Shown in pieces: positions 8,097 through 11,101 of a stretch of 64,000 nt of DNA; position 1 is the stretch's first letter; the number at the start of each line of letters is the position of its first letter. Made by a program: the position numbers and the translations under genes. The stretch is taken from NCBI GenBank assembly GCA_900544205.1, contig UQUG01000001.1, forward strand, positions 10,612 to 74,611, in the 5' to 3' direction. Origin of the DNA: an uncultured Collinsella sp. Lineage in GTDB: Bacteria; Actinomycetota; Coriobacteriia; Coriobacteriales; Coriobacteriaceae. The notes under the pieces are model-generated. The model did no database searches. It saw only the letters and a program-made list of their open reading frames with translations, and was not told where the DNA came from.

Positions 8097-9722
8097 ATGG
8101 CCGATACGCAGGCAACCGAGCAGGCAACCGAGGGGTTCGAGTACGCGGACCCGCTGGCATCGGACAAGGCGGTATGGGCGCTTGTCGGCGCGGTAAAGAA
8201 CCTGGGCGACCAGAAGGCGCTCGAGCGCGACGCCTCTACGGGCCGCTACTCCAACGAGAGCGTCGCCGCGATGGTGGACAAGCACAAGACGGGGCTGGTG
8301 TACACGTTCCTCATCCCGGCGGGCAGCCCCACCGACATTCAGCCGATGAGCGCCGCCGCGAAGCGCGTGGCCTCCACCGAGTTCGTGCCCGCGACGGCGA
8401 CGAGCGCGGCTGTCGACCCGTTCGACACCGAGGGCGGCCCATGGTTCCACGTGTCCGCCAACGCCGGTGCCGACGCCGACGGCGTGCCGTGGGTCGAGGC
8501 CATCGACGGCGTCGACTATGGCTTCTCGCGCGTGGACAACGGACACGGCAACAACGTCTACGAGATCGCGCCGGTCGTGTGGCAGGCGGTCGAGGTACTG
8601 ACGAACGGCAACCTGCTCGTCTCGTGGTCCGACAGCCGATTCAGCGGCTCGCAGCCGAACCCCAAGGCGTTGCTGCCAGACGGCACGCTGCGACCGTACA
8701 TGCTGACGCCGACGTATCCCATGAGCATCGACGCCGACGGGCGCCCGCGCTCCGTTTCGGGCGCGAAGGTCGCCAACCGCACGACGTCGCACGACTCGCT
8801 CGTCGACCTTTGCAAGACCGCGACCACGGGCTACTCGGGCATGAGCGTCTACGACCAGTGGTATATCAACTTCCACCAGTTGACCAAGACGCTCTGCAAG
8901 TCCTCCCAGGTGGACTTCCCGGGCTGCACGGACTTCAACATCCAAATTCACCCCGCGCTCGCCGAGACGGGCGTCACGCGCGTGGTCGTCACCGCCGAGC
9001 AGGCGGCGAAGATTCCCGTGGGTGCGTCGATGATGTACGGCACCGACACGGGCACCACGTGTCCAGACCGAGGCGCCGCGGCGGCGTACGACGTGTTCGA
9101 CGGCGCGGTCGTCGGCGGCAAGGAGACGCTCGCAGACGGCAACGTGGCGCTTCTCATGGACGTCGCCAAGGCGTTCGACACGACCGTGAACACATGGCTC
9201 CAGAGCGCACCGTGGAGCACGGGCAACACCGATGCCCTCGTTGGCGACGGCCAGGTGGCGAAGGACGGCAAGCATCCGTTCAAGGTCGGCGGCGTCGAGA
9301 CGGGGCTGGGCCTGTGGGAGTTCATGGGCGATACGCTCTTCGTTTCCGACGGCACGGGCTTCGGCATCGCGGTCAACCCCGACACCCGCAATGAGAAGAA
9401 GAATGCCGTGGCGGACGGGGTGACCCCGACGGCGGCGTGCATGCCGACGGCAGATGGCTACATGCTCGACATCCAGTTCGTCAATGGCCTTATCTTGGGA
9501 AAGGGGCTCGGCGGCTCGGCGACGACCGGTGTCGGCGACTACTTCTACTTCGACACCTCCGGCGGCAAAGTCAAAGGCACAATCCGTCTGGTTCCGTTCC
9601 TCGGCGGCCTGTGGTACGGCTCGGGCGCCGGTCTTCGTTGCGCGAGCTCGCGGGTCTGGTCCGGTGGGGCCGCTTGGTGCTTCGTCTCCCGGCTTTCTGC
9701 TACGGGCCGTAGCCGGGGGTGA
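8097..9722 (+). CDS. DGR variable (target) protein with C-terminal CLec/FGE-like domain
   Basis: The 3' end contains the VR (9588-9699). The C-terminal region has the FGE/CLec pattern (WEF..D...NP......GGSATTG...LGGLWYGSGAGLRCASSR...GFV). The stop lies 23 nt after the VR. Confidence 0.8.
   Translation: MADTQATEQATEGFEYADPLASDKAVWALVGAVKNLGDQKALERDASTGRYSNESVAAMVDKHKTGLVYTFLIPAGSPTDIQPMSAAAKRVASTEFVPATATSAAVDPFDTEGGPWFHVSANAGADADGVPWVEAIDGVDYGFSRVDNGHGNNVYEIAPVVWQAVEVLTNGNLLVSWSDSRFSGSQPNPKALLPDGTLRPYMLTPTYPMSIDADGRPRSVSGAKVANRTTSHDSLVDLCKTATTGYSGMSVYDQWYINFHQLTKTLCKSSQVDFPGCTDFNIQIHPALAETGVTRVVVTAEQAAKIPVGASMMYGTDTGTTCPDRGAAAAYDVFDGAVVGGKETLADGNVALLMDVAKAFDTTVNTWLQSAPWSTGNTDALVGDGQVAKDGKHPFKVGGVETGLGLWEFMGDTLFVSDGTGFGIAVNPDTRNEKKNAVADGVTPTAACMPTADGYMLDIQFVNGLILGKGLGGSATTGVGDYFYFDTSGGKVKGTIRLVPFLGGLWYGSGAGLRCASSRVWSGGAAWCFVSRLSATGRSRG
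9588..9699 (+). repeat. DGR variable repeat (VR)
   Basis: 112 nt matching the downstream TR except at 19 positions, all of which are A in the TR. Confidence 0.85.
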
Positions 9723-9780
9723 ATCAGGGCGTAGCCCTGAGAGGGGGCTGGCCCCCTCCTAACTCCAAACAGGGATTCAC
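9700..9780 (+). other. GC-rich hairpin cluster just 3' of the VR (candidate initiation-of-mutagenic-homing (IMH)-associated stem-loops)
   Basis: CTACGGGCCGTAG palindrome; CAGGGC-GTA-GCCCTG; GAGGGGGC-TG-GCCCCCTC; enclosed by TGAATC...GATTCA. Confidence 0.45.
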
Positions 9781-9800
9781 GGTGAGGGCGGCGCTGGTTT

Positions 9801-9912
9801 CTGGTTCAGTTCCTCGGCAACCTGAGGAACGGCTCGAACGCCGGTCTTCGTTACGCGAACTCGAGGAACAGGTCCGGTAGGGCCACTTGGAACTTCGTCT
9901 CCCGGCAATCTG
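9801..9912 (+). repeat. DGR template repeat (TR)
   Basis: Intergenic copy of the VR. Read in the VR frame it is AAC-rich (V Q F L G N L R N G S N A G L R Y A N S R N R S G R A T W N F V S R Q S). Followed by hairpin CCGCGCCCGCC...GGCGGGACGCGG. Confidence 0.85.
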
Positions 9913-10069
9913 TCTATAAATCTCTACTCGCACCGTGTCTACCGCGCCCGCCGCTTTCTGGCGGGACGCGGCTCTGCCTGACTCCTTTGAGTGAAATTTG
10001 TCCGCAAGGCTCACGGGCTGGTAGCCGCAAGGCGAACGCTCGTATGACAGACAGAAAGAGCTTTGATCT

Positions 10070-11101
10070 ATGAAAACCTACTGCAAGGGCATCGAGTTCA
10101 CGCGCAAGAGCGTCGTCGAGGCCCTGCACCGATGGAAGAAAAGTGACTCCGGCAAGGAGAACGGCTGGCGCGTCGCCGACGAATACGGCACCGAGACGGC
10201 GTTCGTCGACCGCATCTGGCTAGAGCTCTCGACCGAGACGCTTACGTTCGAGCCGATTCGAACCTACCTGAAGCACGACCCGAACAACGGCAAGCTGCGC
10301 GAGATAAGCGTCGAGAGCATCAAGCGGCAGGTCTGCAACTACCTGTGCGTTGGGGCACTCGAGCCGCTCCTTGCCGCCAAGGTCGGCTTCTGGCAGGTGT
10401 CGAGCGGCGTCAAGGGCAAGGGCGCGGCGCTGGGGATGCGCAAGCTCAGGCGTGAGGTTCACCGCTTCGCCTACCACGTACACGTCGACATCCGCAACTG
10501 CTACGGCTCGATGCGGACGGAGATAGTGGAGGGTCTGGTGGCGCGCTACGTCAAGAACAGCCAAGTCCTCTACCTGCTCCATTCGCTGCTGTCGACGATG
10601 AACGGCGTCCTTATCCTCGGCAGCTACCTGTCGCTTCGGTTGGCGGCGCTCGTGATCTCGTTCGCGTACCACGCGGTCGAGGAGGCGGCGAAGGAACGGC
10701 GCGGCAAACGCGTGAGGCTCGCGGGATGCCAGGTGTGGTACGCCGACGACGGCTATTTTCTCGGCAACTCAAAGCGTTCGCTCAGGAAGGCCGCGGCCAT
10801 CGCCGCGCGCGTTTTGGGGCGGCTAGGATTGTCGCTGAAACCGTGGAAGGTGAGGCGCAACGGCGCCGAGCCCATCGACTTCGCGGGCTATCGCATCTGG
10901 TGCGCTCGCGGGCGCCGGGTCGACTTGCGAAAGAGGCTCTGGAAACGACTGCGACGCGCGTTCGCGCGCTACATGCGCGGGCGCACCGAGCGCTTGGCGA
11001 GGCGCGTGTGCTCTTACTGGGGCTGGCTGAAAACGGCTGTCATGGAGCACCAGATGAACGTCAAGCGGTGCATATTCAACGCGGCGAGGGCCGTGGGTTA
11101 G
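10070..11101 (+). CDS. DGR reverse transcriptase
   Basis: RT motifs: FEPIRTYLK...REISVESIKRQV, HVDIRNCYGSM, LILGSYLSLRLAAL (DGR-type motif 4 variant), VWYADDGYFLG (YADD), EPIDFAGYRIW. 343 aa. Immediately downstream of the TR. Confidence 0.85.
   Translation: MKTYCKGIEFTRKSVVEALHRWKKSDSGKENGWRVADEYGTETAFVDRIWLELSTETLTFEPIRTYLKHDPNNGKLREISVESIKRQVCNYLCVGALEPLLAAKVGFWQVSSGVKGKGAALGMRKLRREVHRFAYHVHVDIRNCYGSMRTEIVEGLVARYVKNSQVLYLLHSLLSTMNGVLILGSYLSLRLAALVISFAYHAVEEAAKERRGKRVRLAGCQVWYADDGYFLGNSKRSLRKAAAIAARVLGRLGLSLKPWKVRRNGAEPIDFAGYRIWCARGRRVDLRKRLWKRLRRAFARYMRGRTERLARRVCSYWGWLKTAVMEHQMNVKRCIFNAARAVG

Follow-up and report, generated by a model that had tools for sequence, protein, structure and literature searches.

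A diversity-generating retroelement without Avd in a Collinsella prophage

To our knowledge, diversity-generating retroelements (DGRs) are the only natural systems in prokaryotes that direct hypermutation at specific proteins, and tools for directed evolution are being built from them. The accessory protein Avd accompanies about 74% of them; it is essential in the element of Bordetella phage BPP-1 and is not universal. The mechanistic knowledge of which we are aware comes entirely from this one Avd-dependent element, and roughly a quarter of DGRs lack Avd. Here we analyze a 64,000-nt stretch of DNA (the window) from an uncultured Collinsella sp. (GCA_900544205.1, contig UQUG01000001.1, positions 10,612 to 74,611), in which an initial annotation made from the letters alone had recognized a DGR within a prophage, consisting of a variable repeat (VR) in the gene of a variable protein, a template repeat (TR), and a reverse transcriptase (RT). 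We conclude with high confidence that the region is a complete DGR carried by a Collinsella prophage and that it works without Avd. Coordinates are positions in the window, and features lie on the forward strand unless noted.

About 31,000 DGRs have been catalogued. Wu et al. reported that 29% of DGRs lack an accessory gene and inferred Avd-independent homing (2018, PMC5758913). The cassette described here resembles the Avd-less elements of their Architecture A1 ("target-TR-RT," RT Lineage 3) in its core architecture, its single adjacent target, its association with a phage, its very few non-A substitutions, and its lack of an accessory gene of the four named classes; this likeness is one of architecture as described. 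Unlike Architecture A, it has a conserved open reading frame (ORF) after the RT and a structured RNA, neither of which was reported there. A second point of comparison is CH1, found in Architecture E of Lineage 3a, whose members have no motifs and occur only in DGRs without avd, HRDC, and MSL (PMC5758913). Like CH1, the ORF that follows our RT (ORF113) is small and acidic (isoelectric point [pI] 4.3, against 4.7 for CH1) and belongs to an avd-less DGR. The 14 CH1 proteins are 160–169 aa long, and Architecture E1 is known from Lineage 3a alone, in Bacteroides and relatives, whereas members of the ORF113 family are mostly 102–135 aa and occur in phages of Coriobacteriia and Firmicutes.

The element of BPP-1 (mtd-avd-TR-brt) shares with ours an adenine-specific transfer from TR to VR at the 3′ end of a gene for a C-type-lectin-fold phage protein, an RT of the same clade, a GC-rich element resembling the initiation of mutagenic homing (IMH) sequence followed by fixed VR/TR differences, and GC-rich inverted repeats after the VR. 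Both have a structured spacer between TR and RT and a helix that brackets the TR, which in BPP-1 is the avd:Sp "cPRT Stop," and the boundary duplex described below would correspond to the TR117-129:Sp47-56 template-primer duplex of BPP-1. The strand order of the spacer is reversed relative to BPP-1, which makes the fold a pseudoknot here. Unlike BPP-1, the Collinsella element has no avd, a Leu at the position equivalent to Q187 of the BPP-1 RT (bRT), an acidic ORF after the RT, and tandem hairpins whose loops are not GRNA. Where BPP-1 has an Avd-binding stem-loop after the TR, there is here a short, variable, AT-rich linker, consistent with the absence of Avd.

Closer in host are the prophage DGRs of Eggerthella lenta, which likewise reside in human-gut Coriobacteriia, target an mtd-like gene that neighbors virion structural genes, and have been shown experimentally to diversify in the case of one element (PMC8778435). 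Most of those elements carry a putative avd between target and TR, unlike the Collinsella element; distant RT homologs from Eggerthellaceae (P0097 and P0103) provide our sole sequence comparison with that group. Finally, the Rfam motifs RT-10, RT-18 (RF03021), and RT-19 (RF03073) lie beside RT genes; RT-10 is the TR-RT spacer of BPP-1, and its discoverers speculated that others belong to DGRs (Weinberg 2017, PMC5737381). The window spacer aligns end to end with RT-18 and that of a distant relative, L144, with RT-19, both below threshold. The published conservation survey of DGR RNA elements covers Avd-containing DGRs only.

The repeat pair and its population record

A repeat search of the window identified the VR at 9587–9699 and the TR at 9800–9912, direct repeats of 113 nt that are offset by 213 nt and 83% identical, and no third copy; the VR is present once. 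The initial annotation was right that these are direct repeats and had drawn them one 5′ base too short, at 112 nt. The VR lies within the final 45 codons of the coding sequence (CDS) 8097–9722 and encodes residues 497–534 of 541, and the TR is non-coding, inside a 347-nt intergenic region. On a base-by-base recount, all 19 mismatches fall on an adenine of the downstream copy, as had been reported, with A>G at 10 positions, A>T at seven, and A>C at two (TR>VR). The TR contains 21 adenines, and the probability that 19 mismatches would all strike adenines by chance is 1.2e-19 (hypergeometric). Of the TR adenines, just those at 9829 and 9858 still stand opposite an A in the VR.

Not all of these differences can be attributed to mutagenesis. 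The earlier reading of 19 mutagenized sites holds for 17 of them; the remaining two, TT at VR 9694–9695 opposite AA at TR 9907–9908, are a fixed difference, with TT in 72 of 72 VRs, though 9695 is a synonymous third position, and AA in 70 of 72 TRs. Since this pair is fixed rather than mutagenized, the TR has 19 mutable adenines, 17 of which are changed in the window. Read in the frame of the target gene, the TR gives LVQFLGNLRNGSNAGLRYANSRNRSGRATWNFVSRQS, in agreement with the translation first proposed. Its 13 variable codons (six AAC, four AGG, and one each of CAG, TAC, and ACT) have all 19 mutable adenines at codon positions 1 or 2, no stop codon can be reached from any of them, and about 6e10 protein variants are possible.

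To place the window in a population, a search based on the RT was used, which returned 72 genome loci, nearly all titled Collinsella, and 43 gut viral contigs. The genome loci include C. aerofaciens isolates and one complete Collinsella genome, with at least three cultured isolates among them, and the corresponding RT sequence cluster has >4,000 members in human gut data. The sample from which L001 and L002 come carries a VR identical to that of the window. Eighty-three loci, from genomes and metagenome assemblies rather than reads, had both repeats ungapped; the RTs of the phages compared are 95–100% identical to that of the window. At these loci, 1220 of the 1251 VR/TR mismatches are at TR adenines and 31 at non-A positions; the VRs take 79 distinct forms and the TRs 37. 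Two A>T changes per locus in this count are the fixed TT/AA pair, and the true spectrum is therefore nearer G > T > C.

Column entropy, calculated from 72 distinct alignable regions of 886 nt each, concentrates the variation in the same positions. The 19 hypervariable VR columns, exactly opposite TR adenines, average 1.48 bits, compared with 0.056 bits in other VR columns, 0.084 bits in the 400 nt of CDS upstream (0.185 at third positions), and about 0.02 bits in both spacers. The TR, too, hardly varies. The initial annotation had suggested looking for VR polymorphism confined to TR-adenine columns in reads; run across related genomes instead, that comparison gives the expected pattern. The repeats also share a history at other positions: non-adenine polymorphisms of the TR at 9626, 9629, 9662, 9665, 9671, and 9674 (VR numbering) occur with identical counts in VR and TR, indicating that each VR has repeatedly been overwritten from its own TR and that sequence flows from TR to VR. 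From the asymmetry at adenines we infer the same direction.

Pairs of closely related phages show how recent this process is. Between L085 and L086, 9 of 12,916 nt are different outside the VR, as against 12 of the 19 mutable sites within it; for L033 and L086, the figures are 47 positions outside and 8 of 19 mutable sites. Near-identical phages with different VRs imply that diversification is recent. Adenine-specific pairs are found as well in lineages with 31–72% RT identity, and the layout (VR, about 100 nt, TR, about 160–185 nt, RT) holds across the lineage. As judged from these comparative data, adenine-specific TR-to-VR copying by a DGR-clade RT has taken place, and has done so recently at the level of the clade.

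The 3′ ends of the two repeats have the organization of IMH and IMH* in BPP-1. The VR end (9680–9699) consists of a GC-rich 14-mer, CTTCGTCTCCCGGC (9680–9693), the fixed TT, and TCTG; the TR end (9893–9915) has the identical 14-mer (9893–9906), the fixed AA, and the boundary strand TCTGTCT (9909–9915). An equivalent VR/TR dinucleotide difference precedes (T)CTG in nearly every distant lineage compared, L120 being identical there. By analogy with BPP-1, we infer that the 14-mer and the fixed TT/AA pair may function as IMH and IMH*. Tandem inverted repeats (9724–9758, no strand assigned) follow just past the stop codon, forming hairpin 1 (9724–9740) and hairpin 2 (9741–9758) with 7-bp stems that start 25 and 42 nt past the VR; they were found by folding and comparison of 12 lineages. 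A conserved GGGTGA holds the stop codon, and both hairpins stand in a fixed register after TGA in 12/12 lineages, in which the stems covary: that of hairpin 1 varies freely with pairing kept, and hairpin 2 retains GAGGGG..CCCCT. The folding energy of the post-VR region is no better than that of shuffled sequences (z −1.2). A second hairpin candidate, within the coding 3′ end (9686–9719), is absent from other lineages and was discarded as a conserved element. Phage DGRs have a GC-rich hairpin/cruciform 4–34 bp downstream of the VR, with a 7–10 bp stem and a GRNA loop, which BPP-1 requires (Guo 2011, PMC3240598), and by analogy the tandem hairpins are candidates for a DNA hairpin/cruciform used in target recognition.

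Several relatives depart from the intact arrangement. Seven loci (L025, L060, L092, L094, L097, L019, and L070) have "eroded" TRs in the slot at about 5731–5843 (locus coordinates), in which the AA marker and the adjacency to the RT are kept and 4–16 of the 21 adenines are gone. The replaced sites mostly carry the base of the same locus's VR: 9/9 in L025 (a cultured C. aerofaciens isolate), 6/6 in L060, and 5/5 in L094. This looks like gene conversion from VR to TR or homing of cDNA into the TR, permanently removing mutable sites; short-read assembly chimeras could also produce it. At L053, L077, L084, L093, and L098 (about 5500–5850), one repeat unit plus spacer (213 nt) is absent and the target CDS runs into a single hybrid repeat, which ends with the VR-type TT in L098 and with the TR-type AA in the other four. 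These loci represent either real VR-TR recombination that kills the element or assembler collapse, the latter being expected if the VR is heterogeneous within a sample. Two further contigs with 96–98% RT identity, L027 (CAVCKO010000014.1) and L055 (CAVFEY010000042.1), are Collinsella prophage sequences filed under "Treponemataceae bacterium" and "Firmicutes bacterium AF25-13AC"; these labels are most likely binning or labelling errors rather than signs of a cross-phylum host range.

Reverse transcriptase, spacer RNA, and ORF113

The RT gene (10070–11101; 343 aa) starts 157 nt past the TR and contains QVWYADDGYFLG, as the initial annotation had it. The ORF is intact and all catalytic residues are present, including D140 and the YADD of residues 224–227 (nt 10739–10750); motif 4 reads LGSYLSL (nt 10616–10636). 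PHROG 1423 ("reverse transcriptase") matches it at 2e-32. The RT has a single significant solved relative, 8ub7. A profile built from 32 family members, 31–87% identical, matches 8ub7 over its full length with 108 bits (E 4e-30), 65 bits ahead of the next solved match; no group II intron or "retron-type" RT exceeds 43 bits. We take 8ub7 to be the Bordetella phage bRT because its D138, I181, Q187, and D215/D216 stand at the positions given for these residues in the cryo-EM paper; a literature search on the PDB code had no result. Among the NCBIfam models, group II RT TIGR04416 reaches 49.9 bits against a cut-off of 300, and the retron model 15.4 against 235; PADLOC gives weak matches to generic DRT and retron RT models, ≤35 bits. 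The assignment to the DGR clade rather than to group II introns or retrons, for which the annotators had wanted an RT phylogeny, is upheld here by profile scores and by the failure of the curated models.

The palm motif [I/L/V]GxxxSQ is typical of DGR RTs, without being a formal detection criterion. At the corresponding site (bRT I181-Q187), the window RT retains LGxxxS and has L in place of Q. This Q-to-L change extends throughout the window clade, and SQ is kept in the distant family members P0101 and P0103–P0106. Given that the Q-to-L clade still diversifies adenine-specifically, the change represents lineage variation and is no ground for excluding these RTs from DGRs. Its coexistence with retained adenine specificity bears on what determines adenine mutagenesis.

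Fourteen divergent loci, aligned over the interval that opens 45 nt before the TR and closes at the start of the RT gene, point to a conserved RNA fold around the TR. RNAalifold independently recovers a helix that brackets the TR (9778–9784:9931–9937), together with P1, P3, and P4. The 5′ strand of the bracketing helix, CACGGTG (9778–9784), pairs with CACCGTG in the spacer (9931–9937), with 98% of alignment cells paired and compensatory changes in 6/7 pairs. A spacer hairpin follows at 9942–9971, 12 bp with a bulged A on its 3′ strand; 13/14 lineages have a 7–12 bp hairpin at this position, mostly with a single bulged nucleotide, usually A. The structured 3′ spacer (9981–10058) comprises P1 (9981–9992), P3 (10013–10018 with 10038–10043), P4 (10024–10033, with a GNRA loop), and AGACAGA (10049–10055). 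The last belongs to the near-invariant segment NNNNCAGA(G/A)AG, which pairs with the TR 3′ boundary (9909–9915) in a duplex that we added to the model by eye, 88% paired. Covariation is present in P1, P3, P4, and this pseudoknot duplex.

The complete model of 30 pairs has 91% of cells paired, against 36–44% with slid partners; 21 pairs have compensatory changes, against 5–8 in slid controls; and the covariation score is 0.46, against ≤0.10. None of 500 shuffles reached the observed values. The folding energy of the TR-spacer RNA is no better than that of shuffles (z −0.5), and the support for the structure accordingly comes from covariation, not energy. In Rfam, the full RT-18 model aligns at 9981–10058 with 29.5 bits (E 0.0015–0.0054; gathering score 41.3), and the L144 spacer scores 21.3 bits with RT-19 (threshold 78.3); a scan of four loci gave no match at E ≤0.1. 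With scores under the gathering thresholds, the spacer is related to these motifs in layout and is not a curated member.

The spacers between VR and TR (100 nt) and between TR and RT (157 nt) leave no room for an avd gene. What does accompany the RT is ORF113 (11112–11453), encoding a small acidic protein (pI 4.3) directly after it. ORF113 was considered as an Avd and rejected: it is acidic, is predicted to form a β-sheet with helices and not a four-helix bundle, and has no Avd-like match. By profile, and in a sample anchored on the RT, 157 of the 158 loci with room for one have an ORF113-like gene immediately behind the RT in the same orientation, at a median gap of 14 nt (minimum −34) and often overlapping the RT stop codon; Firmicutes-hosted members with 31–32% RT identity are among them. 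The exception, L144 (624–2400), is the sole locus of the RT lineage that has downstream room without an ORF113-like gene, and its spacer is the one that matches RT-19, not RT-18. The ORF113 family comprises 69 clusters among 1.84 billion representatives; Pfam has no name for it, and the PHROGs to which it belongs are of unknown function. Two single-protein scans for further homologs produced one new true locus, RT-linked, and two spurious ones. This linkage makes ORF113 a candidate conserved cassette member that travels with the RT.

The variable protein and its prophage setting

The target gene (8097–9722) encodes the 541-aa variable protein, for which the initial annotation had proposed a C-type-lectin type. 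No match to it was found at sequence level in Pfam, NCBIfam, or PDB, and structure prediction alone was informative: a confident model (pLDDT 81.8) has as its top structural neighbors TaqVP, TvpA, Mtd, and FGE-type folds, in line with the proposal. Like the solved DGR variable proteins TaqVP, TvpA, Mtd, and AvpA, the predicted target has a C-type-lectin fold of the FGE type whose C-terminal ligand-binding face carries the VR, and the model supports display of the VR residues on this face. It differs from them in sequence, being 10–16% identical, and in that its relatives have a fibre-type N-terminal context.

ORF232 (7398–8096) abuts the target start codon. It has no match in Pfam, PHROG, PADLOC, or NCBIfam and none that is Avd-like. 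Its residues 133–163 resemble residues 369–399 of P0145 (58% identity, E 8e-7), which lie in the N-terminal extension of a 913-aa target homolog, and its C-terminal ~58 residues recur immediately ahead of the target in L120, L124, and L145; going by these matches, ORF232 is probably a split-off N-terminal adaptor part of a fibre-type protein. A BppU_N-type anchor was considered for ORF232 and dismissed, there being no similarity to P0127 and just the 31-residue match to P0145.

The prophage setting seen by the initial annotation was confirmed for the first 27 kb of the window. Genes run in the order HTH (helix-turn-helix)/terminase-small-like, TerL, portal, the DGR cassette, Mu F-like head protein, scaffold, and P22-type coat, followed by a tape-measure-sized ORF, fn3 and carbohydrate-binding module (CBM) tail proteins, and an amidase, after which host thiD and thiC begin. 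The cassette (7398–11453) therefore lies between the portal and Mu F genes, outside the tail module. In distant relatives (L156, L160, L165, and L166), it comes after tape-measure, Dit, and Tal and before holin and lysin, and by comparison the head-module position is a relocation specific to these Collinsella phages. The prophage has separate fn3 and CBM tail-fibre genes at 21102–25035.

Within the cassette region (7200–11700), a scan for sigma-70 promoters found none. A terminator-like hairpin with T-run (11577–11592), after ORF113, was picked up by a consensus scan as a possible 3′ end of the cassette transcription unit; the region has five terminator-like sites against 3.3 expected, making this call a weak one. 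A blastn search of the whole cassette against 50,697 annotated phage records returned no match, and a literature search for Collinsella and DGR found no description of a Collinsella DGR, just an unrelated use of the Collinsella CspRecT protein.

Two neighboring observations concern other genes. The Mu F-like head protein (11617–13638) has its Pfam match at residues 175–291 and a C-terminal extension of ~350 residues, without significant Pfam match, that contains HEFGH (HExxH) at residues 484–488 (nt 13066–13080); Mu F may here be joined to a domain of metallopeptidase type. L168 (4001–6470) encodes a collagen-containing target homolog, 36% identical, that keeps the C-terminus SRLSGVGRSRG* and both post-stop hairpins, and TR, RT, and ORF113-like gene are all absent downstream. 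It looks like a former DGR target that has lost its diversifier, or a target served in trans.

Proposed mechanism, alternatives, and meaning

By analogy with BPP-1, a transcript of about 9770–10060 would fold such that helix 9778–9784:9931–9937 closes off the TR in the manner of the "cPRT Stop," and the TR 3′ boundary (9909–9915) would join the spacer AGACAGA (10049–10055) in a template-primer duplex. The RT would then cis-prime from the conserved spacer purine beside this duplex and copy the TR, misincorporating opposite adenines. The cDNA would replace the VR, with the 3′ crossover falling within the shared GC-rich 14-mer, upstream of the TT/AA marker; the fixed marker would keep the TR from being a target itself, and the tandem hairpins past the stop codon would aid target recognition. 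The outcome would be 13 ligand-binding residues in as many as about 6e10 combinations, free of stop codons, and the likely purpose is to retune receptor binding by a fibre-type virion protein.

The DGR reading proposed initially, in which the TR templates the VR of a variable protein, is supported by the substitution spectrum, the RT clade, the VR polymorphism, the predicted fold, and the prophage context. A number of observations weigh against our conclusion. No Avd-family Pfam match was found in the 27 prophage ORFs scanned or in the cassette, and Avd is essential in BPP-1, the sole biochemically studied DGR. Pfam RVT_1 scores the RT at 27.4 bits, just under its 29.6 cut-off, and Q187 of bRT, which contacts the incoming nucleotide, is Leu here (L183-G-S-Y-L-S-L189). 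The TR-boundary:spacer duplex was found by eye on the same sequences that were used to evaluate it, 3/8 of its pairs have compensatory changes, and the pseudoknot is absent in BPP-1; the Rfam RT-18 and RT-19 matches are sub-threshold. The post-VR hairpins have loops, GTA and CTGG, outside the GRNA consensus, and the second lies past the 34-bp limit. VR variation was seen across genomes and assemblies, not reads, the activity of the window copy was not directly observed, and the TRs of some relatives have lost adenines, showing that not every copy is fully competent.

Some of these points would suit a fossil element, one whose lineage diversified once and whose window copy no longer does, leaving the VR/TR differences as a frozen record; a lost host or accessory factor, the Q-to-L change, or silencing by the move into the head module might be the cause. 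The evidence for activity is indeed at clade level, with none direct for the window copy, Avd is missing, the Pfam RT score is marginal, and eroded TRs and VR-TR collapses do occur in relatives. We nevertheless consider a fossil improbable. The RT ORF is unbroken and lacks no catalytic residue, the window TR keeps 21/21 adenines along with every conserved RNA and DNA element, and Q-to-L is common to the whole clade, including the very recently diversified L085 and L086; moreover, phages with RTs 95–100% identical to that of the window carry 79 distinct VRs at 83 loci. That the locus is no DGR at all, its RT belonging to a retron, group II intron, or anti-phage defence system and its repeats being an ordinary duplication that diverged by chance or recombination, we hold to be scarcely credible. 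Such an origin could appeal to the PADLOC DRT/retron matches (≤35 bits) and to TIGR04416 (49.9 bits), but these scores are far under the curated cut-offs (300 and 235 bits) and under the 108-bit bRT match. The all-adenine spectrum (P about 1e-19) recurs in 83 loci and in lineages with 31–72% RT identity, and the locus has no intron RNA domains or retron msr/msd features, Rfam yielding just the sub-threshold RT-18 and RT-19.

Within the reading of the locus as an Avd-independent DGR, opinion on ORF113 is evenly balanced. There is about an even chance that it is a virion, fibre-assembly, or receptor-binding partner of the variable protein with no part in retrohoming, the TR and RT having been inserted between the two genes. 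In relatives the cassette ends the tail module before holin and lysin, where small fibre-associated genes are common, and one longer ORF113-family member carries a CBM_5_12 module, pointing towards a virion role, as another weakly matches a tail-fibre PHROG; the acidic ORF113 (pI 4.3) is also unlike the nucleic-acid-binding Avd (Wu 2018). Yet it is the RT, and not the fibre gene, that ORF113 always follows, often overlapping the RT stop codon; RT and ORF113 entered the head module of the Collinsella phages jointly; and L168, which retains the fibre gene and hairpins, lacks TR, RT, and ORF113-like gene alike. A bolder proposal is that this RT lineage of Coriobacteriia and Firmicutes phages carries out DGR reverse transcription without Avd and by a mechanism of its own, with a reversed-strand pseudoknot RNA, ORF113 replacing the positioning role of Avd, and RT-18 and RT-19 as the spacer RNAs of such elements; we advance it as a speculation that is more probably wrong than right by some distance.

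The detection itself is ordinary, a textbook DGR signature that had been correctly recognized, and DGRs in Coriobacteriia prophages have already been reported (PMC8778435). The Avd-less class is likewise known, if mechanistically less studied, and the window element is a further case of it. Moderate interest attaches to features of the lineage: the RNA architecture, the RT-linked ORF113, and the relocation of the cassette. As an element that is abundant in the gut, compact (about 4 kb), and recently active in its clade, and that comes with a covariation-supported RNA model and a candidate partner gene, it offers a tractable system in which Avd-independent retrohoming can be put to a direct test. 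Seen from the side of the host, it points to a phage protein of Collinsella that is continually being diversified and whose gene, unusually, lies within the head-gene module.

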